A stretch of 64,000 nt of DNA from Treponemataceae bacterium (GTDB lineage: Bacteria > Spirochaetota > Spirochaetia > Treponematales > Rectinemataceae), in assembly GCA_963678065.2 (NCBI GenBank), contig CAXXVZ010000003.1, forward strand, positions 1,152,001 to 1,216,000. Direction: 5' to 3'. Under the pieces are notes generated by a model. The model worked only from the letters and a program-made list of their open reading frames with translations. It ran no database searches and was not told the origin of the DNA. The translations under genes were made by a program, and so were the position numbers. This document shows, in pieces, positions 24,751 to 40,732 of the stretch. Each line of letters starts with the position of its first letter. The stretch's first letter is position 1.

Positions 24751-25353
24751 TCAGGATCCCCGGCGTTCCTCGAGACCGACAATGAGGTCGACCTCGGCGA
24801 CACTCAGACCCAGGCGCGCGGCTATGACTTCGGATGTGAAACCGGCGCGGTAGAGGTCGAGAGCCTCCGTCTTCGGGGATTTTCCATGCTGCGCAGGTCC
24901 CGCCGATTCGGCTCCACCGCGAGTGAGGGTTCGACCGGGGGAACGTCCGAGGGCGAGGACGATGGGGAGAGCTGCCCCCTCATCCGGAATCGTGGCCGCG
25001 GTCGCGGCTGCGGTCGCAGATGCGCCGGGAACGCCCCTGCCGCTCTCTCCTGCCCCGTCGTCCGGACGCAGCTCCGGAACGGCGGCCGATCCCCGGGCAG
25101 GCGCGCCGGGCTGGGTGCCGCGAGACTGGGCCTCGTCGAGAAGATCCCGCATGACGGCGATCCTGTCTTCGAGGAGGCCAATGTTGCGCTCGCTGACCTC
25201 TCCGAAATCGACGGCGAGAGCCTCAACCTCGTCGCGAAGCGCGCAGAGCCGCCCCTCGAGTCCCGCAAGCTTCTCGAGCCTCGCCCGGAAGACGAAAAAC
25301 AGGGTGATAAAACCCGCGATCTGGATCGCGGCGAACAAGACTATCGTGGCCAT
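24751..25353 (-). CDS. Membrane-anchored coiled-coil protein with a C-terminal HTH-like segment (flagellar-locus-associated, DUF6115-like)
   Basis: N-terminal TM, ERNIGLLEDRI coiled coil, C-terminal LYRAGFTSEVIAARLGLSVAEVDLI. Confidence 0.7.
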   Translation of the reverse strand: MATIVLFAAIQIAGFITLFFVFRARLEKLAGLEGRLCALRDEVEALAVDFGEVSERNIGLLEDRIAVMRDLLDEAQSRGTQPGAPARGSAAVPELRPDDGAGESGRGVPGASATAAATAATIPDEGAALPIVLALGRSPGRTLTRGGAESAGPAQHGKSPKTEALDLYRAGFTSEVIAARLGLSVAEVDLIVGLEERRGS

Positions 25354-25357
25354 GACT

Positions 25358-25708
25358 TCAGCCCCGGAGGTCGAGCCGGGCACCGGCCTTTTCTTTCAGG
25401 ATATTCGGCTCCCGCGCGGCGGCCTTGTCCGGAGACATGGCTCTGGGCGCGGGCTTCAGAATCTGGTCTTCGGGGATTCTGCGGACAGGGCGCGGCCGCG
25501 AGGGCTCGATCCCGGCCGTCGGGCCTTCGCCGTGAACGGCTTCCTCCGCCGCCCTGCTGAGAGACTTCAGGGGCGCCGCGGCCGATTTCCCCAGCCTGGT
25601 CGCCGAGACAGCGAGGGCGGACTCCTGGGAGAGAGCGATGGCGGCTGCAACCGCCCAGGGATCTGTGTTCGGATCTGAAATCCTGCCTGACGCCGGAAAG
25701 TCCGCCAT
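25358..25708 (-). CDS. Hypothetical protein
   Basis: Fills the gap between fliA and the next gene with tight spacing; ends GARLDLRG. Confidence 0.55.
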   Translation of the reverse strand: MADFPASGRISDPNTDPWAVAAAIALSQESALAVSATRLGKSAAAPLKSLSRAAEEAVHGEGPTAGIEPSRPRPVRRIPEDQILKPAPRAMSPDKAAAREPNILKEKAGARLDLRG

Positions 25709-25715
25709 GGCGGTT

Positions 25716-26531
25716 TTAGTAGATACCCTTGCGGTAGTTGGTCAGCTTTGCCCTGAGCCGGATGATGGCCTTGGTGTGGAGCTGGCTGATCCGGGATTCC
25801 GTGACCTCGAGGACCTGGCCGATCTCCTTCAGGGTGAGATCTTCGTAATAGTAGAGGACGAGCACGGTTTTTTCTTTTTCGGGCAGCTCGTTTATTGCCT
25901 GGACGACGACCTTCCGGATGGCTTCCCGCTCCACGGAGGCGTCCGGGTTCATGCTCACCGGAGATTCGATGCTGTCCCCGAGGGAGAGCTGTTCGTCTTC
26001 GGTGCCCGAATACCAGACCTCGTTGAGGGAGAGGATGGCGGTTCCGGATATCTTGAGCATGGTCTTCCCGAATTCTTCTTCGGAGATGCCCATGGAGACC
26101 GCGATCTCCTGGTCGGTCGCCGGACGCCCGAGCCGGCCCTCCAGTTTCGCGACCGCTTCCTCGATCTCGCGCGTTTTCTGGCGGACGGAGCGGGGTATCC
26201 AGTCGATGGCGCGCAGCTCGTCGAAAATTGCGCCGCGTATGCGGGTCACCGCGTAGGTCTTGAACTTGACGTGCTTGCTCGGGTCGAATTTGTCGATCGC
26301 GTCGATGAGGCCGAAAACGCCGTAGCCTACGAGATCCTCGAACTCGACCTGGTTGGGCATGCCCGCGGCAACTTTGCCCGCCACATATTTGACGAGGGGC
26401 GCGTACTGGCGGATGAATGCTTCCCGTATGGCGGGATCGCGAGTCTTGAAATAACGGGGCCAGAGTTCTTCTTCGGTCAAGTGGCTCGTCGGGGTGTCAG
26501 TTTTTCGGTATGAACGAAGATCGCTATCCAC
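25716..26531 (-). CDS. fliA: RNA polymerase sigma-28 factor (FliA/WhiG)
   Basis: YAPLVKYVAG, GLIDAIDKFD, RIRGAIFDELRAIDWIPRSVR, LTLKEIGQVLEVTESRISQLH. Confidence 0.95.
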   Translation of the reverse strand: MDSDLRSYRKTDTPTSHLTEEELWPRYFKTRDPAIREAFIRQYAPLVKYVAGKVAAGMPNQVEFEDLVGYGVFGLIDAIDKFDPSKHVKFKTYAVTRIRGAIFDELRAIDWIPRSVRQKTREIEEAVAKLEGRLGRPATDQEIAVSMGISEEEFGKTMLKISGTAILSLNEVWYSGTEDEQLSLGDSIESPVSMNPDASVEREAIRKVVVQAINELPEKEKTVLVLYYYEDLTLKEIGQVLEVTESRISQLHTKAIIRLRAKLTNYRKGIY

Positions 26532-26552
26532 GTGTTTCCGGCCCTCCTCTCG

Positions 26553-27446
26553 CTAGAGTAGGCTCAAACCGGAGCCGCCGTCAAGTTCGGAAACGATCCT
26601 GGCATCGTTATCGCGCGCATGTTTCGCCCGGAAGGGCTGTCTGCCGCGTTCCAGTCGTTCGGCGAAGTGGACGAGCGAGAGCGCCGTCCTCGATCCGGGT
26701 TCCGATTCGACGAGAGGAATGTCTTCGGGACCGGAACCCATGGCAGCCCGTTCCGGGTGGGTGAAGACGCAGCCCCGGTATTCGACGACGGGCGCGCCGA
26801 GTCCCGGAGCGCAGGCTTTCATGACTGCGAGGGCCGTGTTCCGTCCCTCGGCGATGGAGTCAACGCAGTTCACGGCGAGGCGCAGGGCGGGGATCCCGTA
26901 TTCCTGCACCGACGAGAGGAGGTTGATGAAGCCCGCGGCCTCCCTGAGGCCGGAAGCTCCCGGCAGGGCGAGGACGACGGGCTCATCGGCGGCGCGGATG
27001 ACCCGGAGGGAGATATGGGACACTCCGGCCGGCAGGTCGACGATGAGGAGATCCCTGGACTGGGGCGGACTCGCCCTCCCGGCTCCGGAGGGGGCAAAAG
27101 CCATAGCCATTCCGATGGTCCCGGCCGCGCCGGAGGCGAACTCGCCCTTCCCGCCCGAATCCCTCAGGTTCCGCGAATCGCTCAGGTTCCGCGAATCCCT
27201 CGAGGCGAGAATCCCGCTGATCTTCGCCTCGTCGCTCCCGTCTACAAGGAAGACCCGGTAACCTTTCCGGGAGAAGACGGAGGCGAGATTCCTGCACAGA
27301 CTGCTTCTGCCTGCCCGCGCGAGACCGGAGGCGAGCGCGATGAACCAGGCATCGCCCTCAAGGGAAGGCGGAGAGCCTCCAGGGGATGATGGCGAGGGAT
27401 GGCGCATACCGACCAGATCGCGCAAAAACTGTGCCTGGTCTTCCAT
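26553..27446 (-). CDS. flhG: Degenerate FlhG/MinD-like protein
   Basis: Lies after flhF. N-terminal MEDQAQFLR, IALASGLARAGRSS at the Walker A position, VFLVDG, LLIVDLPAGVS, LAVN. Confidence 0.75.
   Translation of the reverse strand: MEDQAQFLRDLVGMRHPSPSSPGGSPPSLEGDAWFIALASGLARAGRSSLCRNLASVFSRKGYRVFLVDGSDEAKISGILASRDSRNLSDSRNLRDSGGKGEFASGAAGTIGMAMAFAPSGAGRASPPQSRDLLIVDLPAGVSHISLRVIRAADEPVVLALPGASGLREAAGFINLLSSVQEYGIPALRLAVNCVDSIAEGRNTALAVMKACAPGLGAPVVEYRGCVFTHPERAAMGSGPEDIPLVESEPGSRTALSLVHFAERLERGRQPFRAKHARDNDARIVSELDGGSGLSLL
27156..27201. repeat. In-frame 18-bp tandem repeat (about 2.5 copies) in flhG
   Basis: CGAATCCCTCAGGTTCCG / CGAATCGCTCAGGTTCCG / CGAATCCCTC. Confidence 0.85.
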
Positions 27447-27448: not shown

Positions 27449-28648
27449 TCAGAATCCTCCTGCCTGTCCGGAGGAAGCAGTCCGGTTGCCCGGCTTCGTC
27501 GCCGGCCGCTCGATGCGGTCGGCGAGTCTGTCGGCCCGTGCCCGCTCGATATCCTGGGGGACCCTCTGCCCCGTCGTGATGTAGGAGAGAGGGACTCCGC
27601 GCGCGGCAAGGGCGGAAATGGCATTGCCGATCCTGGCGGTTTCGTCGACCTTGGTCAGGACCACCGCGCGATAGCCGAAAACCGAGAAGGACTCCAGCGT
27701 TCTCTCCATGTCCGAGGTCTTCATCGTGGCGGAGATCGCGAGGTGGACCTCGGCTTCCGGGCCGCAGGCCGCGATGACTCTCTGCATGTCCGCGAGGCGG
27801 GAGAGATCGCCCGGGCTCTTTCCGATCGTATCGACGAGAATGAGTCCCGATTCCTGGCAGAGCGAGAGGGTCTTGTAGAGATCGTCCGCCGTCTCGACGC
27901 CGGAGACGGGGACACCCATGATGTCGCCGTAAGTCTCGATCTGCTGTCTCGCGCCGATGCGGTAGTTGTCTATGGTGATCATCTGCACGGGTTCGCGCTT
28001 CTCGCCGCCGATGCCCACAGAGTGGATGGCGGCGAGTTTGGCTATCGTCGTCGTCTTCCCCACCCCGGTCGGCCCGACCAGGATGAAGATCCTGCGCCGG
28101 CCTGCGGCGGGAGCTGACCAGATCCCTATTCCCTCGCGGATCCAGCCGATGACAGTCGCCTCGACGAAGCCGGGGTCGGAGAGCCTCTCCATGGAAAAAC
28201 TCTGCGCCACGCGGGCCATGATCCCGTCCTCGTAGGCCTGTGAAAACTCGTTGTGGCGCAGGAGCGATCTGACCCTGGCCATGCTGGGATGCTCGGCTCC
28301 CGCTTCCGCCTTTTCGGCGCCCTTGGTCTCCTCGATGCTCTCGCGGAGCTTTTTCACTTCGGCGAGGACGGACTGGATGGCCTGATCGGCTTTAGCCTGG
28401 GAAAGAATGCGACGCTTGCGCTCCTCGAGGTCATCCTTCTCGTCCTGGCTCGGAGCCGTCTTCCGGGCGACGCCGTCTTCCTCCCGGACATAGCCCGTCA
28501 CCTCGATGCCCTCCTTCGCGAAAAGCCCGAGAAAGCCGCCCATGCGTATTGTCTTGTGGGAGACGATCTGGGCCGCGTTTCCGTATTTTGCCCTCACTTT
28601 TTCGAGAGCCTCGCGCCGGGACGGCGCCTGTTCGGTAAAATATTGCAT
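27449..28648 (-). CDS. flhF: SRP-family GTPase FlhF
   Basis: [44 protein letters not shown]. Confidence 0.95.
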   Translation of the reverse strand: MQYFTEQAPSRREALEKVRAKYGNAAQIVSHKTIRMGGFLGLFAKEGIEVTGYVREEDGVARKTAPSQDEKDDLEERKRRILSQAKADQAIQSVLAEVKKLRESIEETKGAEKAEAGAEHPSMARVRSLLRHNEFSQAYEDGIMARVAQSFSMERLSDPGFVEATVIGWIREGIGIWSAPAAGRRRIFILVGPTGVGKTTTIAKLAAIHSVGIGGEKREPVQMITIDNYRIGARQQIETYGDIMGVPVSGVETADDLYKTLSLCQESGLILVDTIGKSPGDLSRLADMQRVIAACGPEAEVHLAISATMKTSDMERTLESFSVFGYRAVVLTKVDETARIGNAISALAARGVPLSYITTGQRVPQDIERARADRLADRIERPATKPGNRTASSGQAGGF

Positions 28649-28662: not shown

Positions 28663-30900
28663 TCAGTCTGGGAGAGCGATTTCCGCGATTGTCCGGACCC
28701 GCGCCTCGGGCGGGAGTTCCTGGCTCGACAGCACGCAGAGTCCCGGGAAGCGCCGTTCGGTGGCGGCGCGCGCGAGGGCCCTGACCTGGCCGGGACAGAC
28801 CAGGACAGCCTCGTCGGGCTCAAGCCCCGATTCAGCGAGACGCCCATCAAGCGAGTTCAGGAAGGCTTCGTGTCGCTCCGGCTCGAGTCCCGGCCTCGGC
28901 CCGGAATCGGTCCGGACTGCGCTCGCTGCGAGTTCGCGCGCGAGGGCCGGCGAGAGGGTGAAGACATCGAGAATCCCGTCCCTCTCCTCCGCGTCGCGGC
29001 CCGCGGCTCCGCCGTCGTCGTGCACTCCGCTCCCTCCTGCCGGCCGACCCCGCCGTTCCAGGCAGGCCAACCATATCTGACGGCCGAGAGCCTGTCGAGC
29101 CTTTTCGGCGAGAAAGGTATAATCTTTGACTTGTCCTGGGTAGTCGGCGAGGGTTTCGAAGATGACGACCGTATTCCGGATCGAGACTTTCTCGCGCAGG
29201 AGGATCTGGAGGACGCGCTGGACATCGCCGAGGGAATGGGCGGAGAGAAGGCCGGACACGACGGCCGGATAGTCCTTCCTGAGATCCTCCGTGAGGGACT
29301 GGACTTCCTGCCTGCCGAGAAAATCGGCCGTCCGCGCGCGCATGGCCCCGGAGAGTAGGTCGAGGATGATTTCCCTGTGGGTCGAGACGGTGAAACCCTG
29401 GCTCTCGGCCTTCGCCCGGTTCGACGCGGAAATCCAGAACGCATCCTTTCCCGTCCGCGGGTCCCGGACGGGGTCGGCGGGGATGTCTACAGGCATGCTT
29501 CCCGCGGGGCCCGCGGCGAGAAGGCGGCCGGGTTTCAGCATCCCTCCGGAAATTCTGTCGCCGCGTATCCTCACGGTGTAGGCGTAGCTCGCGAGTTTGG
29601 GCGAGTCGAGGACGCGCAGCGGTGGTATGGGCACGCCGGTTTCGAGGCTGAGTTCGGCGCGGATCGCCGTGACACGCCCGATGAAGCCCGTTCCTGTGTC
29701 CGGAACCTCCCCCTCATCCAGCGCGAGGTGGACGAGGCCGTAGCCGAGTTCGAGGCAGAAGGGCTCAGGCGGCGCGACGGACGAGAATACCTGCGTCCCG
29801 CCACCGCCAGAAAGGCCTCCTGAGGGGATGGCGGCGAAGCCCCCGGCTTCGGGCTTGCTTGCGGCGAAAGCTCTTCCGGGGGAATCAGCCTCAGAAGAAG
29901 TCCGGGACCGGGGACTGGATGAATCGCGGCGGTTCCCGCTGAGGCCGACATACCCGAAGACCGCGGCCATGGGCAGAAGGACATACCAGGGGAATCCGGG
30001 AAGGAAGGCCATGAGGGCGAGTATGGCTCCGGTCGCGGAGAGTATGCCTCCCCTGGCACCGAACTGGCCTCTGGCCTGAGAGACGAATGTGGTCTTTGAA
30101 TCCGCCTTGGTCACCACGATACCCGCGGCGACAGAGATGAGGAGGGCCGGCAATTGGGCGAGGAGTCCGTCCCCGATTGTCAGCCGCGTGTAGGTTTCGA
30201 GGGCTGTCGCGAAGTCTTCGCCGTGGAGGCTCATTCCGACGATGAAGCCCCCGACGATGTTGACCAGCGTGATGAGGACCGCGACTTTCGCGTTTCCGGA
30301 GACGAACTTGGAGGCACCGTCCATCTGGCCGTAAAAATCGGCTTCCTGACGGAGGGCGGCCTTGCGTCCCGCGGCCTCGGCCTGACTGATGGCCCCGGCG
30401 CTGAGCTCGGCGTCTATGGCCATCTGCCTTCCCGGCAACGCGTCGAGGGCGAAGCGGGCGGCTACTTCGGCGATGCGCCCCGAGCCTTTCGTGATGACGA
30501 TCAGCTGGACCGCGATGATGATGACGAAGATCATCGATCCCACGACGATTCCCTCCGCCCCACCCCCCGCGACAAAGGAACCGAAGGCGCGGATCAGCTT
30601 TCCGTCGAAGGATGAGCCCCGGAGGAGGATGAGTCTCGTCGAGGATATGTTGAGGGCCAGTCCCAGGACCGTGGCGAGGAGGAGGATGGTCGGGAAGACG
30701 GAAAAATCCGTCGCCTTGCGGACGCCGAGGGCCAGGAAGAAGATACAGAGAGCCAGGGCCAGCTGCAGCGCGAGGAAAAAATCGAGCAGAAAGGTCGGCA
30801 TTGGGATGAGGATCATGAAAACTACAGCGAGGACGGCCAGGGCCATCGCCGATTCGGCCCGGAACGGATTCTTGCGCCCGGATTCTGCCCTTTCGTTCAT
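28663..30900 (-). CDS. flhA: Flagellar type III export gate protein FlhA
   Basis: FSVFPTILL, NISSTRLIL, VITKGSGRIAEVAARFALDALPGRQMAIDAEL, FYGQMDGASKFV, TIGDGL, LLREKVSIRN. Confidence 0.93.
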   Translation of the reverse strand: MNERAESGRKNPFRAESAMALAVLAVVFMILIPMPTFLLDFFLALQLALALCIFFLALGVRKATDFSVFPTILLLATVLGLALNISSTRLILLRGSSFDGKLIRAFGSFVAGGGAEGIVVGSMIFVIIIAVQLIVITKGSGRIAEVAARFALDALPGRQMAIDAELSAGAISQAEAAGRKAALRQEADFYGQMDGASKFVSGNAKVAVLITLVNIVGGFIVGMSLHGEDFATALETYTRLTIGDGLLAQLPALLISVAAGIVVTKADSKTTFVSQARGQFGARGGILSATGAILALMAFLPGFPWYVLLPMAAVFGYVGLSGNRRDSSSPRSRTSSEADSPGRAFAASKPEAGGFAAIPSGGLSGGGGTQVFSSVAPPEPFCLELGYGLVHLALDEGEVPDTGTGFIGRVTAIRAELSLETGVPIPPLRVLDSPKLASYAYTVRIRGDRISGGMLKPGRLLAAGPAGSMPVDIPADPVRDPRTGKDAFWISASNRAKAESQGFTVSTHREIILDLLSGAMRARTADFLGRQEVQSLTEDLRKDYPAVVSGLLSAHSLGDVQRVLQILLREKVSIRNTVVIFETLADYPGQVKDYTFLAEKARQALGRQIWLACLERRGRPAGGSGVHDDGGAAGRDAEERDGILDVFTLSPALARELAASAVRTDSGPRPGLEPERHEAFLNSLDGRLAESGLEPDEAVLVCPGQVRALARAATERRFPGLCVLSSQELPPEARVRTIAEIALPD

Positions 30901-31700
30901 CGTCTCTCCCCTTCGCCTGTTTTCCTGATCGCCTGGGCGGCGATCCTGTCCCGCATGCGTCTGCGGATCATCGCCTTCTGCGCCGGATCGCCTTCCTCTC
31001 TCCGTTTCTCCTCGCGCAGCTGAGCCGGAGTCAGCTTGAGAGAATCGAAGAGGAGGCGCCGCCGGTACAGCCAGTCCGCGATGCCCGACACGAGGAGGAT
31101 GGCCGCACAGGCGAGGCCGAACTGCCCCGCGAGGGACAGTATACCCGAAAATGCCTCTCCGGGCTGATTTCCGGCCCCCGTCACGATCCGTCGCAATCCT
31201 GCGGGGAAGGTTGCGAGGGCGGCGACAAGGATGGCGACTGTGCGCAGGAAGGGGCGGATCGTCTCATAGAGTCTGCCCGGGCTCTCTGTTCGCCCGCGGC
31301 TCGCAGCACCGGATCGTCTGCCAAGACGCTGGAACTCGGGCTTCAGAGCCGCGGGGAATAGCCGGAATCCTGTCTGGACGAGCCCGGCAACGAGGGTCCC
31401 CGCGAAGATGGCGACGACCGGCAGGGCCGCGAGCCGGCAGAAATGCCCGAATCCCTGCGCGAAGGCTTCTTCGAGGCCATTCACCTTTCCGGCCGACGCG
31501 ACGGACCCCCAGAAGCTTTGGAACATGGTATCCGTCTCCCGCGCGGCGAAGGGAGCGCCGATGATGAGCGCGAGAATGCCCGCCGAAAGGCCTGCAGCTG
31601 CGGCGAGGTCGGCGCTGCAGGCGACCCGTCCTTCCTTTCGGGCCCGCTCGCGCAGTCCTTCCGAAGGCTCCTCCGTTCTTCCTTCGTCCTCCGATCTCAC
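30897..31700 (-). CDS. flhB: FlhB, C-terminally truncated (no NPTH, no cytoplasmic switch domain)
   Basis: GRTEEPS...RARKEGRVACS.DL, QTGF, LKPEFQRL, LKLTPAQLREEKRREEGDP..K..IRRRMR, then a stop after about 267 aa. Confidence 0.85.
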   Translation of the reverse strand: MRSEDEGRTEEPSEGLRERARKEGRVACSADLAAAAGLSAGILALIIGAPFAARETDTMFQSFWGSVASAGKVNGLEEAFAQGFGHFCRLAALPVVAIFAGTLVAGLVQTGFRLFPAALKPEFQRLGRRSGAASRGRTESPGRLYETIRPFLRTVAILVAALATFPAGLRRIVTGAGNQPGEAFSGILSLAGQFGLACAAILLVSGIADWLYRRRLLFDSLKLTPAQLREEKRREEGDPAQKAMIRRRMRDRIAAQAIRKTGEGERR

Positions 31701-34436: not shown

Positions 34437-35948
34437 TTACTTTATGGCCCCGAAGGATGCAAGCGAAACGCCTTTTCCGCTGCCGGCGCGGGCGAGACAG
34501 CCCCATGCGGCGGGGACAGACCCGTCGAGCACGCAGAGTTCCCGGATTTCCGTCCGGACGCCCGCATCCGCGCAGGCGGCATATTCTCCGTATTCCATGC
34601 TCATCGGGGGGCCGGCTACCTTGCGCAGAGGCAAGAGCCGGCGCATAGCCTCCCCCTCCACGAGCCAGGCAAGTCTTTCGGAGCTTCCCTCGCTGAAACA
34701 GACGTCGAAATTGAAACTGAAATAGTGTTCGGGAAGATCGTGCACAAAACAGTTCCCCGCGCTGATTCCCGGGGACATTCCTCCCGGGGGCACAGAGAGG
34801 GGCGCGGGAAAAACATGAAAGGCGACGAGGAAGGCCGCTGTCCAGGCGAGCGCGAACTCCTGGATACAGAGTGAGGCGAAGGGGTCGAAGCCTGCCAGGC
34901 CGGGATCGAGGTCCGCGGAAGCGATGAGGGCATCGGCGAGCCGGGGGCCGAGGATGAGGCCGGCGTTTCCTTCCTGACCGCCAGGGCAGGCAAATCGGAT
35001 TCCTGTCACCCGGTCCCGGTGGCTGACCGACCACCCCGTCATGCCAGGGTCGGCCACGGCTCCCTCATCCCGGGTCGCGACAGACAGAAGGGCAATCTTC
35101 ACATCGAGACCCGATGCCTTCGAGAAGGCATCCGACAAGCCCTCCTCGTGGCGGCTGACCCTCGCCGCGAGGATGCTCCGATAGAGATCTCCGAACGACT
35201 GTCCTTCTTCTGGTTCCCGTATTCTGAGGACATCCCTCTCGCCTAGATGCCTCCACTGCGCCGCGTCTACGTCGAGCACCCCGATAACCGGGCGCAGGGG
35301 AACAGGCACAGGGCATGGCGACGGGTAGGAAGAGGGACGCGCGTAGGCGCCGAGGCCCCGGGGCAGGGCTGCCGCAAGCACAATATATCCAATAAAACTA
35401 CTTTTATATATATCTATTTGTGCACACAAACAGATACTGTCAAAACGATAATCCATTTCAGGAAAATAGCTTGCCTCTTTGTTCCTTTCGACGGAAAAAT
35501 CCATGCCGAAGGCTGGAGGCAGGGCGCACAATACCGCATCCCGAAGGATTCCATCCGTCTTTTCCATGACCTCGGACTCGAGGAGGCTGAGAGCCCGTTC
35601 GAGCCTGCCGCAGCCTCCCGGGCCCTTGCCACCCCCGAGCAGCCCGTCAAGAACGAAAAACGTGAGGCCGGGATCGAAGGACACGCGCAGCGACACCGTC
35701 AGACCCGAAGGGTGGAGCGTCGAGCCGGCGGCAGCGCTGCAGACTTCGAAGCCAAGACTGTAGGGAAAAAACACTGCTTCATCAGGGAAGGCCGAGACCG
35801 ACGACAGGACTGCCCTTACGGCCGAACCAGACAGTTCCGGAAACCTTGGCGCCACGGACTCGGCAAAACCTTCGGCGAAGAGGATTCCGCGGCCCAGAAT
35901 CCGTTCGGTCTCGACTCCGGGAGCGCCCAGCGCGGACTCCAGCCTCAT
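34437..35948 (-). CDS. Highly divergent FliM-like C-ring protein, possibly a FliM-FliY remnant fusion
   Basis: VSFDPGLTFFVLDGLLGGGKG...RALSLLESEVME resembles the FliM middle domain (D.LFGG.G...R.LT.IE). Sits at the fliM position. Confidence 0.6.
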   Translation of the reverse strand: MRLESALGAPGVETERILGRGILFAEGFAESVAPRFPELSGSAVRAVLSSVSAFPDEAVFFPYSLGFEVCSAAAGSTLHPSGLTVSLRVSFDPGLTFFVLDGLLGGGKGPGGCGRLERALSLLESEVMEKTDGILRDAVLCALPPAFGMDFSVERNKEASYFPEMDYRFDSICLCAQIDIYKSSFIGYIVLAAALPRGLGAYARPSSYPSPCPVPVPLRPVIGVLDVDAAQWRHLGERDVLRIREPEEGQSFGDLYRSILAARVSRHEEGLSDAFSKASGLDVKIALLSVATRDEGAVADPGMTGWSVSHRDRVTGIRFACPGGQEGNAGLILGPRLADALIASADLDPGLAGFDPFASLCIQEFALAWTAAFLVAFHVFPAPLSVPPGGMSPGISAGNCFVHDLPEHYFSFNFDVCFSEGSSERLAWLVEGEAMRRLLPLRKVAGPPMSMEYGEYAACADAGVRTEIRELCVLDGSVPAAWGCLARAGSGKGVSLASFGAIK

Positions 35949-36328
35949 AGGGCTTCCCTCTTGCGTTTTTCCGCCACTCTCGCCTCTTTCTGCCTGCGGT
36001 CGACCAGGCGTTCGAGGACGAGCCGCTCTGTGCGGGCCTCCCCGTAGAGTCCCAGAGCGGAAGCCAGCCCCTCTTCCGCCCCGGCTCTCTGCGCTTCGAG
36101 GGCGAGCCGCTCGGTTTCCTTCTTCTCGATAAAGGCCCCGAGGTTGTCGATCGCCGAGAGCGTTTCGGCCGCCGGCCTCTCACCGGGCGGGAAATGGGAA
36201 TTTTCCGAAAGTCGATCCCGGATTCCCGCGAGCCTTCCCGAAACCTCGGCGACCCGCATGCCTGCGAGATCCTCTCTGTATTCCCTGAGCTCATGCATCC
36301 ATTCAGGAAGGGGATCGCCGGTTTTCAT
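35945..36328 (-). CDS. fliJ: FliJ-like coiled-coil protein
   Basis: Directly after fliI; helical; ELREYRE...EARTERLVLERL. Confidence 0.65.
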   Translation of the reverse strand: MKTGDPLPEWMHELREYREDLAGMRVAEVSGRLAGIRDRLSENSHFPPGERPAAETLSAIDNLGAFIEKKETERLALEAQRAGAEEGLASALGLYGEARTERLVLERLVDRRQKEARVAEKRKREAL

Positions 36329-37662
36329 GCTTTGGTTCCACCATTGACTTCTGTATGTCTGAAAATAGACAACATTTCATCCATGATTGCGTCAAGCCCG
36401 AAGCTTTCACGCCTTTCCTGGGCCAGGAAGCTGTCGATCCGGGGCTTCAGGAGGATCGCTTCGTCGACTTCCGCGTTCGATCCGCGCACGTAGGCGCCCA
36501 CAGCTATCATATCTTCGTACCGCTCGTAGACTGCGAGAGTCTTCCGTATCCGTTTCATGAGGAGGAGTTCGCCGCTCTCCGTCACCGCAGTTTCGACCCT
36601 GGATACCGATTTGAGCGGGTCCACGGCCGGATACTGGCCGCGCTCGGCGAGACTCCGCGAGAGCACGATGTGGCCATCGAGCATGGACCGGAGGGCGTCC
36701 GCGATCGGCTCGTCGGGATCGTCCCCCTCCACCAGCACGGAATAGATGCCGGTTATGGAGCCCGAATCTGAAGTCCCGGCCCGCTCCAGAAGGCGCGGCA
36801 GGAGGTCGAAGACGCTGGGTGGATAGCCCCGGGCGGAGGCCGGTTCGCCGGAGGCGAGACCGATTTCGCGCTGCGCTTTCGCGAGCCGCGACAGGGAATC
36901 GAAGACAAGGAGGACATCGAGCCCTTGCTCCCGGAAGTACTCGGCCGCCGCGGTGGCGAGGAGGGCTCCCCTGATCCGGGCCAGCGCGGGGCTGTCCGAG
37001 GTCGAGACGACGACGACGGAGCGGGCCAGTCCTTCCGCTCCGAGTTCGCTCTCCACGAACTCGCGGACCTCGCGTCCCCTCTCTCCGATGAGGGCGATCA
37101 CATTGACGTCGGCCTTGCCTCCCCGCGCCATCATGCCGAGGAGAGTGCTCTTGCCGACGCCGGAGCCCGCGAAAACGCCGATCCTCTGGCCCAGGCCGAG
37201 GGGAACCATGCCGTCGACAGCCTTGACGCCCGTGAGGAAACGGCTGTCTATCCTCCTGCGCGACAGAGGTTCGGGAGCGGCCGCCCTGAGATTCCGGTAT
37301 TCGCCTTCAGTCACAGGGGGAAGGCCGTCCAGCGGCCTTCCCCGGGAGTCGATCACCCGTCCGAGAAGGGAGGATGACATCGCGACGCCGGCGGCGAGGC
37401 CGCTCGCGATGACGGGGCATCCGATTTCGATGCCCTCCATGCTCTCGTAGGACATGAGGCGGACGCTGTCCACGCCGAGTCCCACGACTTCGGCTTCCAT
37501 GGAGCGGCCGGTCTGGGGAATCACGATCCGGCACAATTCGCCGAGGACGGCCCTGGGACCGCGGCTCTCCACGAGAAGGCCGCGAACCATCGTGACCCGG
37601 CCGGTGTGGAGGATGGGATTGGCGTTCGTGGCCGCTTCGATAGCCGGCGCAAGGAGGCCCAT
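36325..37662 (-). CDS. fliI: Flagellar type III export ATPase FliI
   Basis: GQRIGVFAGSGVGKS, ALIGERGREV, LLVFDSLSR, QREIGL, RGYPPS, GSITG, LDGHIVLSR. Confidence 0.96.
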   Translation of the reverse strand: MGLLAPAIEAATNANPILHTGRVTMVRGLLVESRGPRAVLGELCRIVIPQTGRSMEAEVVGLGVDSVRLMSYESMEGIEIGCPVIASGLAAGVAMSSSLLGRVIDSRGRPLDGLPPVTEGEYRNLRAAAPEPLSRRRIDSRFLTGVKAVDGMVPLGLGQRIGVFAGSGVGKSTLLGMMARGGKADVNVIALIGERGREVREFVESELGAEGLARSVVVVSTSDSPALARIRGALLATAAAEYFREQGLDVLLVFDSLSRLAKAQREIGLASGEPASARGYPPSVFDLLPRLLERAGTSDSGSITGIYSVLVEGDDPDEPIADALRSMLDGHIVLSRSLAERGQYPAVDPLKSVSRVETAVTESGELLLMKRIRKTLAVYERYEDMIAVGAYVRGSNAEVDEAILLKPRIDSFLAQERRESFGLDAIMDEMLSIFRHTEVNGGTKA

Positions 37663-37667
37663 CGCGA

Positions 37668-38540
37668 TCACCCTCTTGAAGCCGCGGCGCCGAGGTCCGC
37701 GACAATCGGTCCGGGCGCCGGCCCGCGCAGGACAGTCTCCATGGCTGCGAGCATCGACTCGATCCGCGCGTCGATCCACCCGGAAGATGTCTCGAGGACG
37801 CAGCCGCCGGGCTGAATGGCGGGATCGGCCTCTATCCGCACTCCGCTCGAGGCAATCCCGACTCCCGGGGCGGCGGAAGTTTCATGGCCGAGGGCGGCGC
37901 GGACAGCCTCGAGGTCGGCGGGGGAAACCGAGAGAAGGAGGGGTCGGGCGTTCCCGAGGAGGGAGAGGAGTCTGGGAACTGTTTCCGCGACGACAGCGCG
38001 GGAGTCGGCGCAGGCGCCACCCACAATCTTGCGCGCCACGAGGAGAGAGAGCTCGATGAGTTCGGCTCCGGCGTCCCTGATGGCGGAGCTCCGGGTCGCC
38101 TCCGCCCGCGAGTGGATGGCCTCGATCGAGGCGACGATGGAGCGCGCCCGATCCATGCCCTGGGCGAAACCCCGCGCTTCGCCTTCGGCGCGGACTTTTT
38201 CACGTTCCAGATCCGCCTGTCCCCTGGCAGTCGCGAGCAATTCATCGGCCTCGCGGCGCGCCTCGCCGAGAATGCGGGCGGTTTGAGCCTCCATATTCGC
38301 CATGGACTCAGCTTCATACCGGGCGAGTCTTCCGCGGATTTCCTTTTCCGCGTCGGAGAGGGCCTGGGCGCGGGCTTCCTCGTAGACAAGGATTGCCTGT
38401 TCGCGCCACTGTGCCTTGAAAATCCCGATCTCGCCGAGAGCTTCCGACTCGGCGTCGAAAGCGAAAGCCTCCGTCCGTTCCGGCTTCACGTCCGCTGTCG
38501 GGTACGGCGCGTCGCCTTCCGGTGAGTGCAGCGTGCTCAT
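37668..38540 (-). CDS. fliH: Flagellar export ATPase regulator FliH
   Basis: AxxxG repeats (AEGEARGFAQG), VSPADL, DPAIQPGGCVLETSSGWIDARIE. Confidence 0.88.
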   Translation of the reverse strand: MSTLHSPEGDAPYPTADVKPERTEAFAFDAESEALGEIGIFKAQWREQAILVYEEARAQALSDAEKEIRGRLARYEAESMANMEAQTARILGEARREADELLATARGQADLEREKVRAEGEARGFAQGMDRARSIVASIEAIHSRAEATRSSAIRDAGAELIELSLLVARKIVGGACADSRAVVAETVPRLLSLLGNARPLLLSVSPADLEAVRAALGHETSAAPGVGIASSGVRIEADPAIQPGGCVLETSSGWIDARIESMLAAMETVLRGPAPGPIVADLGAAASRG

Positions 38541-39238
38541 TGTTTTTCGGTCGCCCTGCCGCCGGCTCGGGCCTCGGCCCGGCCCGCCTTCCGCAGAGCC
38601 TCCCTGATGGCCCTGGCGATGCCTGGATGGCCCGAATCGAGCTCACCCATGATTCTCCTGCCCGACTGGCCGTCGACGCATTCCAGGATGCGGGCGAGGG
38701 ATTCGGGGCCGGATTCCGTTCCGGAATCCGGGGATTTCCTCCCATCGGGGCAGGAGGCTTCTTCTCTCGCTGTCCTTCCCTTTCCCGCGGGGCCGAGCCG
38801 GGTCTCCAGCACGCGCTCCACAGTCCTGACAGTTTCCGGGGCCGCCCTGTCGATGGAAGCAATGCGCCGCGCGATGTCCGATTGCATGGCTGCGGGGAGA
38901 TTGCGCAGGACGAAGGCCGCCCCTTCCGGCTCCATTCTGGAAAGCACGAGGGCTATGGTCTGAGGATGTTCGGAGCCCACAAGTTCGAGAATCCGCCCGG
39001 GATCGGCCTCTCCGGAAGCTTCCGTTGCCCGGTTCCTGTCCATGTGACCGCAGAAGGACCTCAGGGCATCGTACTTTTCGTCCTGATCGATGCAGTCCAG
39101 ACAGGAGATCTCGGCGGCGAGGCACTCTACCTCGGAGGGCGCGAGATGTCGGAAAACCTCCGCCGAGATGTCGGAGCCCAGTGTCACGAGGAGAAGGGCC
39201 GCCTTCCTGCGGGAACCCTGCGCGTCGCCGCCACTCAT
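38537..39238 (-). CDS. fliG: FliG, internally shortened and lacking the C-terminal torque domain
   Basis: RRKAALLLVTLGSDISAEVFRHL, EHPQTIALVLS, DIARRIASIDR..PE.VR.VERVLE. Ends at about 233 aa with no MFxFED region. Confidence 0.85.
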   Translation of the reverse strand: MSGGDAQGSRRKAALLLVTLGSDISAEVFRHLAPSEVECLAAEISCLDCIDQDEKYDALRSFCGHMDRNRATEASGEADPGRILELVGSEHPQTIALVLSRMEPEGAAFVLRNLPAAMQSDIARRIASIDRAAPETVRTVERVLETRLGPAGKGRTAREEASCPDGRKSPDSGTESGPESLARILECVDGQSGRRIMGELDSGHPGIARAIREALRKAGRAEARAGGRATEKQ

Positions 39239-40704
39239 GATTCGTTTTCCTCGCTGATCCACGAGCGGATGAGTCGGGCGACCTCGGCAGGGTCCTTGCG
39301 CGCCAGCTCGGCCGCTTCCTCCTGCAGACTGGCGCGGCGCCGCTCGAGAAGCTCGGTGTCGTCGGGGCTCATCCCCGCGCCGTCGCGCCCGGCTCCCGCG
39401 CCGGAGTTACGCGCGAGGCGGGCCTTCGTCAGGGAAACGACAAGAAGCACAAAAAGCACAAGAGCGAGGGCCGCGGCAGCCACGAAACCCGTCCGGTAGA
39501 GCCTGTCCGAATCCGCCTTGGCGAAATACGCCGCGTCCTCTGCTTTGAACTGGGCTGTCCTGTCGAAGGGGATGTTGCGGACAGTGAGCGAGTCGCCGCG
39601 CGCGGGCTTGAAGCCGACAGCGTCGCGGATGAGTTCCTCTGCCTGGGAGAGCTCGGCCGCCGGAATGGGGCTGTACTCCCTCTCTATCCCTCCGCGGGGA
39701 TTCACGAGGGGCTTCCCTTTCATGTCGTAGGAGGTTTTCCACAGGCCGTCTATGTTGACCGAGACGGAGATCCTGCCGATGAAGGGCGTGGATTCTTCGT
39801 CGATGCGGCCTGTGCCGGGCGCCGCGCTGCCGACCGCCGGGCCTGACGCATCCGTCTCGATCCTGACGGCGAGGTCGCGCACACGGTCGGCAGTGTAGAT
39901 CTGCTGGAGGGTTTTCAGGACCTGAGCCCGGTAACGCGATTCCATCTCGCGGACAAGCTTCTGCCGGGCGACCGTCTTTTCCAGATGGCCGAGGGGGGCT
40001 GATTCCGTCGCATCGTCCAGGACGACTCCGTCGGAATCCGTTATGACGACATTGTCGGCGGAGAGCCCTTCCACGGCGAAGCAGAGTATCCTGCGCACGC
40101 CCGCTATCTTGGCGGGGTTGCGCGCGAAATCGGAACCGGACTTCGTCTGGAGGACGACCGAGGCGGTGACCGGGTTCTGGTCTTCGCTGAAGAGTTCCTT
40201 TTCGGGCATGACGATGGCGACGTCGGCCCTCTCGATATCGTCTATGGACTCGATGTGGCGCTTTACTGCGGCCGTGACGGCTCTTCTGAGATTGACGTTC
40301 CGTTCGAAGTCGGTCGCTGTCCAGCGCTCCATATCGAAGATCGCCCAGGGATCTGTGCCGGTGGGCAGAAGGTCGTCGCGGATGAGGAGGGATCTCGCCC
40401 TGAGGGCGGAAGCCGCGTCGGGCGCGTAGAGGAAGTTTCCGTCGCGCAGCTCGTAGCTCACATTTCCGGCGTCGAGGCTGTGGGTCATCCTGACGAGGAG
40501 GCTCTGGTCTTTGACGGGGGCTCCGAGAATGCGCACCGAAGCCCGGCCCGCCCCGCCGCCCGGAAAAGCTCCGGCCAGGGCGAGAATGAGGATGGCGAGG
40601 ACGAGAACCGCCGCACAGGCGGCGATGAGCGCGATGATGTTGAAGCCGGACTTCTGCCTGAGATCTTTGATCCGCGCGGCGAGTCCATCGATGAATCCGT
40701 TCAT
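39235..40704 (-). CDS. fliF: MS-ring protein FliF (spirochaete type, shortened)
   Basis: N-terminal TM, DPWAIFDMERWTATDFERNVNLRRA, MPEKELF.EDQNPVTASV, AVEGL...N.VITD, C-terminal P.EVARLIRSWI. Confidence 0.9.
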   Translation of the reverse strand: MNGFIDGLAARIKDLRQKSGFNIIALIAACAAVLVLAILILALAGAFPGGGAGRASVRILGAPVKDQSLLVRMTHSLDAGNVSYELRDGNFLYAPDAASALRARSLLIRDDLLPTGTDPWAIFDMERWTATDFERNVNLRRAVTAAVKRHIESIDDIERADVAIVMPEKELFSEDQNPVTASVVLQTKSGSDFARNPAKIAGVRRILCFAVEGLSADNVVITDSDGVVLDDATESAPLGHLEKTVARQKLVREMESRYRAQVLKTLQQIYTADRVRDLAVRIETDASGPAVGSAAPGTGRIDEESTPFIGRISVSVNIDGLWKTSYDMKGKPLVNPRGGIEREYSPIPAAELSQAEELIRDAVGFKPARGDSLTVRNIPFDRTAQFKAEDAAYFAKADSDRLYRTGFVAAAALALVLFVLLVVSLTKARLARNSGAGAGRDGAGMSPDDTELLERRRASLQEEAAELARKDPAEVARLIRSWISEENES

Positions 40705-40732
40705 TTCCCCTCCCCCGCAAGCGTTCCGGAAA

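Follow-up and report, generated by a model that had tools for sequence, protein, structure and literature searches.

The flagellar export operon described here occupies positions 24751-40732 of the window, i.e., of the whole 64,000-nucleotide stretch analysed, which belongs to contig CAXXVZ010000003.1 of Treponemataceae bacterium. ORF calling combined with Pfam searches places its genes on the minus strand in the order fliF-fliG-fliH-fliI-fliJ-like-FliM/N-like-fliO-P-Q-R-flhB-flhA-flhF-flhG-fliA, in agreement with the contiguous order from hslU through fliA that a sequence-only reading had claimed. The features, with the evidence for each, are as follows:

40733..43754, minus strand: xerC-hslV-hslU, conserved upstream neighbours (Pfam; same order in motile relatives)
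40733-42106, minus strand: hslU (ORF and Pfam)
39235..40704, minus strand: fliF, MS-ring protein, 489 aa (Pfam YscJ_FliF, YscJ_FliF_C; alignment with four motile relatives)
38537..39238, minus strand: fliG, truncated, ~233 aa from ATG 39238 (Pfam FliG_N and FliG_M only; alignment; ATGA overlap)
37668..38540, minus strand: fliH, ATPase stator/regulator (Pfam FliH 5.8e-17)
36325..37671, minus strand: fliI, export ATPase (Pfam ATP-synt_ab 5e-84; alignment)
35945..36328, minus strand: orf127, probable FliJ, a very diverged coiled-coil protein in the fliJ position (no Pfam match; hhalign)
34437..35948, minus strand: orf503, probably a diverged FliM/FliN-family (SctQ-like) protein in the fliM-fliY position (no Pfam match; hhalign, ESM Atlas, homologues)
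33597..34358, minus strand: fliO (Pfam FliO 9.8e-9)
32767..33600, minus strand: fliP, export gate (Pfam FliP 5.9e-71, full profile)
32484..32753, minus strand: fliQ, export gate (Pfam Bac_export_3 6.9e-23)
31697..32482, minus strand: fliR, export gate (Pfam Bac_export_1 2.2e-42)
30897..31700, minus strand: flhB, naturally truncated, 267 aa (Pfam Bac_export_2 positions 2-245 of 335; alignment; homologues)
28663..30900, minus strand: flhA, 745 aa (Pfam FHIPEP 4.6e-198; two-part match, 1-562 and 562-656)
27449..28648, minus strand: flhF, SRP-type GTPase (Pfam SRP54 4e-36; motifs)
26553..27446, minus strand: flhG, degenerate (weak ParA/CbiA matches only; alignment)
25716..26531, minus strand: fliA, sigma-28 (Pfam Sigma70 r2, r3, r4; identities)
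25358..25708, minus strand: orf116, a small open frame, unsure as a gene (no homologue found)
24751..25383, minus strand: orf210, DUF2802-like (weak Pfam DUF2802 match; homologues at 27-48% identity)

The reading frame of every operon gene is uninterrupted and 4-nt ATGA/GTGA overlaps couple 8 of the 14 junctions from fliF to fliA, as the same reading had stated, while the remaining gaps measure 1-21 nt, except for 78 nt before fliO. The upstream xerC, hslV and hslU are joined to each other by ATGA overlaps and 28 nt separate the end of hslU from fliF; the cell-division cluster (mraW..ftsQ-ftsA-ftsZ) lies just upstream of the operon, and orf116 begins 7 nt past fliA. The fliI start is either GTG 37671 or ATG 37662. 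An flhB start at 31901 was rejected, the start being GTG 31700 within a GTGA overlap.

By its flanks, gene order and phylogeny, the locus is a vertical, syntenic orthologue of the complete periplasmic-flagellum operon. Four motile family relatives with an operon of the Borrelia flgB-operon type (G002, G012, G024, G005) share xerC-hslVU upstream, the DUF2802 gene downstream and the order of the orthologous genes. They differ by carrying flgB-flgC-fliE, the stretch from fliK through flgD, flgE and fliL to fliM and fliY, and the genes that separate fliA from flhG on one side and from the DUF2802 gene on the other, all of which are missing from the locus; the orf210 homologue of motile relatives is found ~2.3 kb downstream of fliA. 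In a tree of FlhA, FliP and FliA the window falls inside the clade of its own family (support 96); its end branch measures 1.69, the median being 0.18, an acceleration of ~9-fold. The retained genes are 30-76% identical to those of motile kin, from FlhG at 30% to fliA, the best-conserved gene of the operon, at 76%, whereas motile kin share 58-91% with one another. Where the motile kin share 71-91%, the window's identity to them is 30-60%, the flanking hslU, hslV and xerC being equally distant.

Nowhere in the genome (5.27 Mb, completeness 99.94%, contamination 6.72%) is there a gene for the rod, hook, ruler, stator or filament, or for FliN or FliS, so that the lack of rod, hook, ruler, stator and separate fliN/fliY genes claimed for the operon extends genome-wide. 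Family searches with Flg_bb_rod, Flg_bbr_C, FliE, Flagellin_N, FliMN_C, FliM and FliS gave 0 matches, with positive controls in four well-known flagellate genomes (for FliS there were five controls, three of them over the cut-off), and a tblastn search with the fliJ to fliY genes of five motile relatives recovered nothing else at E<=1e-3. Two lone matches were examined and rejected: the MotA_ExbB match belongs to an ExbB-ExbD-TonB cluster, and the FliG_C match lies in a 367-aa protein that 67 of 68 family relatives share, whether or not they are flagellate.

The retained proteins are trimmed at the level of domains. By alignment FliG has lost the domain that faces the stator, FlhB the one that faces early substrates and FliF the one that faces the rod, which specifies the earlier claim that matching interaction domains were lost. 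FliG keeps its N and M domains, including the EHPQ motif, without the C-terminal torque-helix domain and with a 41-aa deletion in the N-M linker. FlhB keeps the transmembrane domain and linker helix and ends ~15 residues past the GDPxxK..R.R motif, the stop falling just before the NPTH site, which is lost together with the C-terminal docking and cleaved domain. In FliF both TM helices, RBM1-2, the end of RBM3 and the C-terminal FliG-binding helix align with the four motile relatives, and ~85 residues corresponding to the β-collar are missing. FlhA consists of a TM domain, a long low-complexity linker and a C-terminal ring domain. The FliI motifs reported as intact are indeed so (Walker A GSGVGKST, GERGRE and Walker B); for FlhF the same statement holds for G1, G2 and G4, while G3 reads DTIG. 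FlhG had been listed without remark, but its deviant Walker A is replaced and its C-terminal amphipathic helix gone; this degeneracy and the FlgM gene were both missed by the sequence-only reading. Its fliJ and fliM-like labels fit the positions of orf127 and orf503, neither of which has a Pfam match, and both identities rest on weak profile or feature matches: orf127, probably FliJ, gives an hhalign probability of 46.5% and E 2e-4 (colinear, 9-120 vs 9-124), while orf503 aligns with the FliM motif region (hhalign, E 4.8e-5), its best ESM Atlas matches are FliM/FliN clusters without exception (0.86-0.87), and its orthologues form a small family of 540-555 aa at 41-46% identity.

The same reduced forms occur in other lineages. 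FlhB homologues of exactly 267 aa are found at 57-58% and at 98% identity, and short FliG homologues at 66-76%, across a sharp gap: short FliG is 66-98% identical and canonical FliG 39% or less. The proposed look at related genomes showed truncated FlhB, short FliG and orf503 recurring at 41-76% identity. Furthermore, in a second clade of five genomes (L011, L014, L015, L018, L020), sister of a motile lineage, FlhB is cut at the same point, and the FlhB truncation evolved independently in a second spirochaete clade. A flagellin search covered four of the five genomes and found none, and the two searched for FlgM and FliS have the former and lack the latter. The clade has also lost FliI and most of FliF, and kept the gate. 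Complete loss has been repeated within the window's own family, where 39 of 68 relatives are without flagellin, FlhA and FlgM.

Those 39 relatives, together with the strongly accelerated rate, the degenerate FlhG and a sigma-28 regulon that was not found, would suit a remnant without present function that is heading for loss as well. This explanation is already disfavoured and we hold it to be very improbable. A neutral simulation with substitutions only predicts ~49 stop codons in 13 genes and 0 are present; the strain variants listed (40 of 183 rows and 40 of 494) comprise 41 synonymous and 22 non-synonymous changes (pN/pS ~0.19, p = 9e-11), and of 8 coding indels 7 preserve the frame. In one related strain positions 26379-40732 lie on a single contig that is 1.56% different, with all indels in frame. 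On the other side, one run shows a 4-nt insertion in fliA, at 70 nt from where a short contig ends. The retained operon is under purifying selection. The open frames despite ~9-fold accelerated divergence, the conservation of these truncated forms across diverged lineages, the pN/pS with its in-frame indels and the independent second origin of this architecture all favour selective retention over decay, as does, against a remnant, the very unequal divergence of the genes; the earlier claim of selective streamlining is strengthened accordingly. Among the variants listed, synonymous and non-synonymous changes number 10 and 0 in flhF, 11 and 7 in flhG, and 5 and 6 in the C-terminal part of FlhA; these last, the rate acceleration and the degenerate FlhG show that some constraint is relaxed. 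As to expression, which had also been put forward as a check, contigs from RNA libraries of two metatranscriptome runs, to which DNA carry-over could contribute, cover orf210, fliA, flhA, flhB, fliO, orf503, orf127, fliI, fliH, fliG and fliF with 0-8 differences.

One may ask what is then being retained. The genome encodes FlgM outside the operon, and FlgM is its sole known T3S substrate. Among 68 family relatives FlgM turned up in 27, each of which belongs to a flagellate genus, and in none of the 39 without FlhA; the protein is 71-73% conserved in diverged reduced lineages, and FlgM and FliA are retained wherever the export core is retained. Our tentative first choice, given somewhat less than an even chance, is that the operon encodes a rod-less exporter locked in a 'late' mode, which would send FlgM, perhaps with other cargo, to the periplasm and so gate sigma-28. 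FliF without its collar, FliG(N+M), orf503 and FliH-FliI-FliJ would assemble around FliPQR-FlhB(TM)-FlhA; the gate, devoid of the FlhB C-terminal domain, would be closed to early (rod/hook-type) cargo and constitutively open to late cargo, and exported FlgM would free sigma-28 to transcribe a regulon. Of the non-motility function (export or landmark) suggested earlier, the selective retention stands, while we infer the export itself from the genes.

This choice is made because engineered Salmonella secretes FlgM to the periplasm. As described by Chevance et al. (mBio 2026, PMC13344023), in Salmonella that lacks the rod-hook genes and Fluke, truncating flhB with a stop at codon 258 or deleting residues 270-383 led to FlgM-Bla in the periplasm, in a T3S-dependent and FliK-independent manner; the early substrate FlgE-Bla was not secreted with the flhB-deltaCCD allele, and basal-body overexpression was needed for good FlgM-Bla secretion. 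Both this 'locked-in-late' strain (flhB-deltaCCD, delta-flk) and the window's genome lack rod/hook genes and FliK, have an FlhB ending before NPTH, and possess the gate, FlhA, ATPase, FlgM and sigma-28. However, the strain was built in the laboratory, while the window's system is natural, old and conserved, with a remodelling that extends to FliG, FliF and the FliM/N protein; the secretion itself is an observation made in Salmonella. Fluke is an enterobacterial protein of which no homologue is expected in the window's spirochaete, and to our knowledge FlgM secretion has never been shown in any spirochaete. It also counts against the late-locked exporter that a collar-less FliF may form no normal ring, that constraint is partly relaxed, and that the sigma-28 promoter form that precedes flaB genes in relatives shows no enrichment in the genome (strict form, 2 matches vs ~3 expected; loose form, 26 vs ~30).

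The evidence of selection and the intact gate and ATPase genes apply equally to a functional exporter directed to the periplasm and selected for a new, non-flagellar cargo protein (for envelope, adhesion or antagonism), FlgM and sigma-28 being merely inherited regulators. The strong divergence of orf503 and FlhA is as expected if cargo recognition changed, and abstracts report that an FT3SS-like system of Lysobacter enzymogenes OH11 secretes protease, glucanase and another protein, and that twitching is affected (PMC7688988, PMC7277350). Both organisms are non-flagellated, without functional flagellin, and keep flagellar export genes, which in Lysobacter are expressed with other roles reported; but Lysobacter retains hook/rod genes such as flgD and its FT3SS secretes FlgD, whereas the window's genome has no axial gene, and the two abstracts make no mention of a truncated FlhB, whereas the window has lost FlhB, FliG and FliF domains. 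The two also differ in phylum and in the periplasmic flagellar ancestry of the window. With no candidate cargo, chaperone (FliS is absent) or effector gene in or beside the operon, and FlgM the only known substrate remaining, we regard a new cargo as unlikely.

Export might also have been lost, leaving a membrane-embedded scaffold: a polar or division-site landmark made of FlhF/FlhG, FliF and FliG, a platform like the nanotube 'CORE', or an ion-conducting FlhA complex. The nanotube 'CORE' is a proposed membrane-remodelling platform. FlhF shows the strictest conservation among the genes sampled, FlhF and FlhG are kept without a flagellum to place, the operon lies directly downstream of the cell-division cluster, and the substrate-docking domain of FlhB is gone; moreover, a 2026 paper ties, in excerpt, FlhG to flagellation-division coupling in spirochaetes (PMC13712777). 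Nevertheless, FliH, a FliJ-like gene and all catalytic motifs of FliI would be superfluous for a passive scaffold, FlhG is without its ATP-binding loop and membrane helix, and FlgM retention tracks the export core. As the second reduced clade has kept the gate and lost FliI and most of FliF, a common FliF/FliG-based scaffold is unlikely, and we consider the explanation as a whole quite improbable.

The non-flagellar T3SS (injectisome) is proposed, in the partial text of Abby and Rocha (2012, PMC3459982), to originate from the flagellum by gene loss. The window's retained set corresponds to the T3SS core (SctJ-like FliF, SctRST, SctU, SctV, SctN, SctL, SctO-like, SctQ-like), but its locus has no secretin, needle or translocon, the genome's only secretin belonging to a T2SS-like cluster on a different contig, and, unlike an injectisome, it keeps the flagellum-specific FliG, FliO, FlhF/FlhG and FliA. 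Injectisomes retain the SctU C-terminal domain, whereas the window's FlhB/SctU is without it. Buchnera keeps flagellar remnants, and Chlamydia keeps orphan FliI/FlhA/FliF plus sigma-28; like the window organism, both are non-motile and have kept partial flagellar export machinery, in Chlamydia also with sigma-28. In contrast to these, the window has a compact operon whose core is complete and whose trimming is at the level of domains. Both are host-restricted with reduced genomes, whereas the window organism has 5.3 Mb and its sequence occurs in environmental runs from groundwater, sludge, biofilm and lake.

An uninterrupted series of open frames was recovered by ORF calling on the minus strand of the window, and the features of the locus are the following:

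43516-51399, minus strand: upstream of xerC, topA and another tyrosine recombinase, followed by the division-cluster genes ftsZ-ftsA-ftsQ
24751-43754, minus strand: the open-frame series; by Pfam, xerC, hslV, hslU, fliF, fliG, fliH, fliI, two unnamed frames of 127 aa (orf127) and 503 aa (orf503), fliO, fliP, fliQ, fliR, flhB, flhA, flhF, a weak ParA-like flhG, fliA and a weak DUF2802 protein
31700, minus strand: GTG start of flhB, within the GTGA that ends fliR, giving a protein of 267 aa
28663-30900, minus strand: flhA, with a long Ser/Gly/Pro-rich linker past the TM domain
25358-25708, minus strand: orf116, a low-complexity open frame, 7 nt past fliA and 4 nt ahead of orf210

From fliF to fliA, 4-nt ATGA/GTGA overlaps join the genes at 8 of 14 junctions, and the other junctions are gaps of 1–21 nt, with the exception of 78 nt before fliO; GC3 of the operon genes (0.67–0.81) is similar to that of the neighbours. 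The reduced fliF to fliA row with open frames, described earlier from the DNA alone, was thus confirmed by ORF and Pfam calling together with the junction check. Since topA, the recombinase and ftsZ-ftsA-ftsQ stand upstream of xerC, the dcw region immediately precedes the reduced operon and shares its strand. For orf116 no homologue was found in relatives, where its position is occupied by a 659-aa and a 113-aa gene.

The order in the window can be compared with that of four genomes of the same family which have a complete periplasmic-flagellum operon (motile relatives). There, xerC-hslV-hslU is followed by a stretch of ~1.5 kb, fliF-fliG-fliH-fliI, a block of ~8 kb (with fliJ, fliK, flgD, flgE, fliL, fliM and fliY among its genes), fliO-fliP-fliQ-fliR-flhB-flhA-flhF-flhG, one gene, fliA, two genes and the DUF2802 gene; the window has the same flanks and order, minus these extra stretches. 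The nearest FliP sequences (identity up to 68%) belong to Treponema and Spirochaetaceae MAGs. In a tree of concatenated FlhA, FliP and FliA, built with the 'quick' method on 30 rows (the window and 29 of 85 pooled loci, i.e., all five reduced loci of a second clade, three family relatives and 21 others picked for spread), the window falls inside its own family clade (support 96), and its terminal branch measures 1.69 changes per column, where the median is 0.18. Both the synteny and this placement indicate that the locus is a vertical descendant of a complete periplasmic-flagellum operon, so that the export core descends from the flagellar operon of its own lineage.

The missing parts were sought in the whole genome (5.27 Mb in 5 contigs, 99.94% complete, 6.72% contamination; the window lies on the 2.4-Mb contig) by six-frame profile searches, with controls positive in flagellate reference genomes for each family that gave no match. 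No match was obtained genome-wide for the rod family Flg_bb_rod (PF00460), Flg_bbr_C (PF06429), FliE (PF02049), Flagellin_N (PF00669), FliMN_C (PF01052) or FliS, nor, even at E≤1, for FliM (PF02154). When the fliJ-to-fliY genes of five motile relatives, including flgD, flgE and fliK, were used in tblastn, nothing was found in the genome at E≤1e-3 except the OmpA-like part of MotB and ExbB. Neither the axial proteins of a flagellum (rod FlgB/C/F/G and FliE, hook FlgE/D/K/L, filament) nor its torque-generating parts (MotA/MotB stator, FliG C-terminal torque domain) are therefore found in this genome, and the proposed absence of rod, hook, ruler and stator genes and of a separate fliN/fliY is borne out genome-wide. 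The same profile searches revealed no full-length FliG or FlhB elsewhere, the only Bac_export_2 match above cut-off in the whole genome being the operon's own FlhB.

Several candidates for the missing parts were rejected. The one MotA_ExbB match proved to be an ExbB, with ExbD and a TonB-like protein after it. The one FliG_C match, on contig C5 (31 bits in the genome search and 33 by Pfam), does not supply the lost half of FliG, because homologues of this 367-aa protein occur in 67 of 68 family genomes, every non-flagellate genus included; the protein (locus L081, G000:C5:74429-77659, ORF C5:75125-76225) has a weak similarity to FliG_C close to its C-terminal end, follows a 166-aa frame of no known family and is present regardless of flagella. 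A weak tblastn match for a separate FlhB C-domain gene (C3:1634753-1634899) is antisense to an Ala/Glu/Lys-repeat gene, whose long product (G000:C3:1633301-1634992) has near-perfect internal repeats of ~180 residues.

All three CheW-domain matches lie in one cluster (G000:C5:696790-705909) of CheW, CheR-TPR, CheW, MCP and CheA-receiver, followed by a receiver-PAS-GGDEF protein, which, as read from translations rather than by a Pfam scan, appears to be a Wsp-like chemosensory pathway with a c-di-GMP, i.e., non-flagellar, output in a flagellum-less genome. Pfam found no injectisome secretin, needle or translocon in the locus, and the genome's sole secretin belongs to a T2SS-like cluster on C5 (G000:C5:1141000-1158001; prepilin peptidase, secretin, GspE/F-like proteins and a pseudopilin, read from translations, with the Secretin match as the only scanned family). 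This cluster adjoins a 1872-aa RHS/YD-repeat protein, whose first ~268 residues recur as a separate 268-aa frame at the cluster's other end.

What remains in the operon is an export core trimmed at the level of domains. The gate proteins FliP-FliQ-FliR and FlhA give full-length Pfam matches, in keeping with the intact gate motifs noted before; the FlhA match splits at profile position 562, with an insertion of ~25 residues late in the C-terminal domain. The ATPase complex is represented by FliH and FliI, both by Pfam, and by a probable FliJ, and FliI keeps Walker A, GERGRE and Walker B, in line with the earlier statement that its motifs are intact. For FlhF the same statement held for G1, G2 and G4, while G3 reads DTIG. 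In FlhG both the deviant Walker A and the C-terminal amphipathic helix are replaced, a degeneration missed in the sequence-only reading. Alignments also bore out its proposal that the retained proteins have lost the matching interaction domains. FliF, compared with four motile relatives, lacks ~85 residues in the middle of RBM3, so that no complete RBM3 and β-collar is present, whereas RBM1-2, the last part of RBM3, the two membrane helices and the FliG-binding helix at the C-terminus are retained; by Salmonella numbering, we take the missing stretch to be the β-collar around the proximal rod. FliG retains its N domain and an M domain in which EHPQ is present, and ends after the M domain and ARM-C; 41 residues of the N-M linker are gone, and so is the entire stator-facing helix bundle of the C-terminus. 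FlhB ends ~15 residues past the GDPxxK..R.R linker and before NPTH, matching only positions 2–245 of the 335 of the Bac_export_2 profile, and hence lacks the autocleaving C-terminal domain that acts as substrate switch.

The two unnamed frames are less readily assigned. The product of orf127 is colinear with the FliJ of relatives (hhalign 46.5%, E 2e-4). For orf503, a remote match to the 'GG.G' core region of FliM was found (hhalign E 4.8e-5), and its ten nearest named ESM-Atlas clusters belong to one family or clan, the four shown being FliM/FliN (0.86–0.87, 173–176 of 256 features); alignment with FliY gave no match, and an AlphaFold2 model from a 3-sequence alignment (mean pLDDT 35.9) was unusable. 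With moderate confidence, orf503 is taken for a diverged protein of the FliM/N family.

Flagellar remnants in non-motile bacteria are usually dismissed as decay. A survey of the family covered 68 further genomes, from 20 other genera. Flagellin_N is present in 29 of them, which belong to 8 genera, and FHIPEP in exactly these 29 and in the window's genome, neither being present in the 39 genomes of the other 12 genera; the window's genome is the sole one among those searched that keeps FlhA without flagellin. In the flanking genes its distance to motile relatives is about the distance of these relatives to one another (identities: hslU 74 and 82%, hslV 77 and 78%, xerC 60 and 66%, respectively), whereas the flagellar genes are far more distant, and to very unequal degrees.

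Table. Identity of the window's flagellar proteins to motile relatives, and of motile relatives among themselves
Protein; to motile relatives; among motile relatives
FliA; 76%; 89%
FliP; 60%; 78%
FlhF; 58%; 73%
FliI; 56%; 85%
FlhA; 49%; 84%
FliG; 42%; 91%
FliH; 32%; 80%
FlhB; 31%; 71%
FlhG; 30%; 86%

Such unequal rates are not expected of uniform neutral decay. When neutral evolution of 13 genes was simulated with substitutions only, up to the same identity ratios, ~49 premature stops were expected and 0 were observed (per-gene chance of none 0 to 0.55).

The truncated forms also recur in other genomes. A full HMMER pass over 1.84 billion representatives showed homologues of orf503 in just two other clusters, with full-length members of 555 and 540 aa (41–46% identical); none was found in 60 relatives or in 400 other genomes of the order, and a metagenome scan gave one weak match of 66 residues (L097). 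Three FlhB homologues have exactly 267 aa (98, 57, and 58% identity), and the next matches are of 353–357 aa at ≤30% (6 proteins at E≤1e-10). Among the 120 FliG matches listed, four belong to short proteins (236, 229, 171, and 171 aa at 98, 66, 69, and 76%, respectively), and the other 116 are ≤39% identical, with FliG_C in 115 of them. A single NCBI contig of 1,264,366 bp carries the 57% FlhB, the 76% FliG, an orf503 homologue and a 73% FlgM, and a contig of 7,021 bp carries the 58% FlhB together with another orf503 homologue. The genomes that bear these homologues (41–76%) are outside the 60 relatives and 400 genomes searched, and what is seen of their gene order comes from the shared contigs. 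The co-occurrence of truncated homologues on diverged contigs implies that the reduced system passed through speciation with its truncations intact.

Variation among strains points the same way. At least part of the stretch is present in 20 of 24 listed public runs, from 10 studies; runs labelled as organisms A–C suggest that there are cultures or enrichments. In run X6, from a related strain, positions 26379–40732 lie on a single contig with 224 substitutions (1.56%) and four indels (18, 3, 15, and 9 nt), all in frame; over both run comparisons, the length of 7 of 8 distinct coding indels is divisible by three (p = 0.003), and two more indels are intergenic. Among the best-supported 40 of 183 variants of the first comparison, 30 fall in fliA to fliF (20 synonymous, 10 non-synonymous), eight in hslU and two between genes; among the best-supported 40 of 494 of the second, 39 fall in flhG, flhF, and flhA (26 synonymous, 13 non-synonymous). 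Their union, 41 synonymous to 22 non-synonymous at 26% synonymous sites, yields pN/pS 0.19 (p = 9e-11) for the best-supported variants, with per-gene ratios of 10:0 in flhF, 11:7 in flhG and 5:6 in the C-terminal part of flhA. The sequence-only reading had named a dN/dS near 1, with frameshifted copies in close relatives and no expression, as grounds against its view; the low pN/pS speaks for selection, and among the runs compared frameshifted copies were not seen but for one 4-nt insertion. The latter, at 26292 in fliA of run X10, lies close to the end (70 nt away) of a contig of 529 nt, is absent from the other runs compared and may be an assembly artefact or a minority variant.

All the evidence on selection, i.e., stops, pN/pS, indels and homologues, runs counter to plain decay without function, and this explanation is disfavoured. 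The export core is trimmed at the domain level and has been kept under selection through speciation; selective streamlining, as first suggested, is favoured over random decay by the zero stops, the unequal rates, the recurrent truncated homologues and the strain variants. Two lake metatranscriptome runs of one study supplied short contigs (~200–360 nt, 0–8 differences) on orf210, fliA, flhA, flhB, fliO/orf503, orf503/orf127, orf127/fliI, fliH/fliI, fliG, fliF, and hslU, operon parts without such cover being no evidence of silence. A co-opted flagellar T3SS of non-flagellated bacteria, of the Lysobacter type, is recognized by the lack of flagellin along with expressed and functional FT3SS genes; here flagellin is lacking, and the contigs that cover the operon, which may include DNA carry-over, hint at its transcription.

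The anti-sigma factor FlgM is retained as well. It is intact in the window's genome (95 aa, 35 bits, over cut-off) and adjoins rsmI (identified by reading the translation), an arrangement shared with a motile relative to whose FlgM it is 46% identical; in diverged members of the window's own clade FlgM is 71–73% identical. Among the 68 family relatives it was found in 27, all in the eight flagellate genera (in two flagellate MAGs it was not found), and in none of the 39 genomes without FlhA. By this distribution, the export core goes with sigma-28 and its anti-sigma factor, in retention as in loss.

A likeness to an engineered system is given by Salmonella. In strains without the rod-hook structural genes and Fluke, the mutants selected for FlgM-Bla export were all in the FlhB C-terminal cleaved domain and included a stop at flhB codon 258, and deletion of residues 270–383 had the same effect (Chevance et al., mBio 2026, PMC13344023). 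That export was fliP-dependent, FliK-independent and directed to the periplasm, it needed basal-body overexpression to be good, and the early substrate FlgE-Bla was not exported in flhB-ΔCCD cells (PMC13344023). The spirochaete has the gene set of this late-locked state, made by evolution: like the engineered strains it has no rod-hook genes or other early substrates and no FliK ruler, its FlhB is cut before NPTH, and it keeps the gate, FlhA, the ATPase, FlgM and sigma-28. Because the gene set matches the Salmonella genotype, a late-locked rod-less exporter is proposed. Such an exporter would be fixed in the late mode and might release FlgM, perhaps along with other cargo, into the periplasm, sigma-28 being controlled through FlgM release; its assembly, export and regulon are inferred. 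One rival is that the core exports a new cargo, as reported for Lysobacter. Another is that it serves as a scaffold or landmark that exports nothing, against which speak the intact FliI of the window and a second reduced clade that has lost FliI and FliF while the gate stays.

The latter clade came from a comparison of FlhB end points. In 5 of 74 loci with an FlhB frame (L011, L014, L015, L018, and L020) FlhB ends within 5 residues of the same point, and in the other 69 it is 91–135 residues longer. These operons are cut down further than the window's. Locus L011 has a 312-aa FliF (RBM1-2 only), full FliG, FliH, a 104-aa N-terminal piece of FliI, a weak FliK_C-like gene, a FliM/N fusion, FliOPQR, FlhB, FlhA, FlhF, and FliA; in L014, where FliI is absent, a 103-aa FliG_M piece and a 301-aa frame of no known family are followed by the FliK_C-like gene, FliM/N, FliOPQR (fliQ by tblastn only), FlhB, FlhA, FlhF, and FliA. 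The FliK_C-like gene (L011:7938-8342 and L014:8138-8494; 118–134 aa, weak match to the FliK C-terminal Flg_hook family) is not present in the window's genome, and in the second clade it is kept although FlhB has lost the domain on which FliK acts. Four of the five genomes (all but that of L015; 1.5–1.8 Mb, without completeness figures) were searched for Flagellin_N and gave none, against 4 matches in a motile control; in the two searched for FlgM and FliS, the former is present and the latter absent. In the tree, the second clade (support 100) is sister to a motile lineage (100) and far from the window, which implies at least two origins of the FlhB truncation. Long-branch attraction would tend to pull the window and L011 together, which is not what the tree shows.

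Tentatively, and as a possibility we hold with some doubt, it may be proposed that spirochaetes at least twice converted the periplasmic flagellum to a type III exporter with neither rod nor motor, through loss of the FlhB C-domain and of the axial and stator genes. Such a machine would be late-locked, with FlgM as its retained substrate and hence a secretion-gated sigma-28 switch, and would stand today for the initial step by which a flagellum becomes an injectisome. In the full-text literature, mostly without subscription journals, no account of such a trimmed flagellar operon, or of a shortened FlhB, was found for spirochaetes that lack flagella. Passages of a phylum-wide spirochaete preprint treat non-spiral species and ancestral flagellar genes and not this system (10.1101/2025.07.04.663154), and an Actinobacteria paper treats degenerative flagellar evolution. 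Co-opted or orphan flagellar export genes are known; what is new is a form without axial genes, trimmed at the level of domains, evolved twice and linked to FlgM and sigma-28. It would parallel, in nature, the 2026 finding in Salmonella that the gate is locked in the late mode once FlhB has lost its C-terminal domain. As a minimal T3SS without a rod, it could serve for studies of gate opening, of FlhA-dependent cargo choice and of how an MS-ring assembles when the collar is missing, and it would be an extant model of the loss-first step proposed for injectisome origin.

A sigma-28/FlgM circuit uncoupled from motility is further predicted. A first, naive sigma-28 pattern gave no result in the genome, and the form CT[AC]AAG-N15-CCGATA[CT], derived from 6 of 22 flaB upstream regions of relatives, gave 2 strict hits against ~3 expected and 26 loose hits against ~30, i.e., no enrichment and no regulon. 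In motile relatives one flaB class (loci L084, L104, L105, L108, L114, and L119) has a sigma-28-type promoter ~170–190 nt before the start codon, and other flaB copies have different upstream motifs. The long flaB leaders of these relatives contain repeated AAGGA motifs, which could be CsrA sites.
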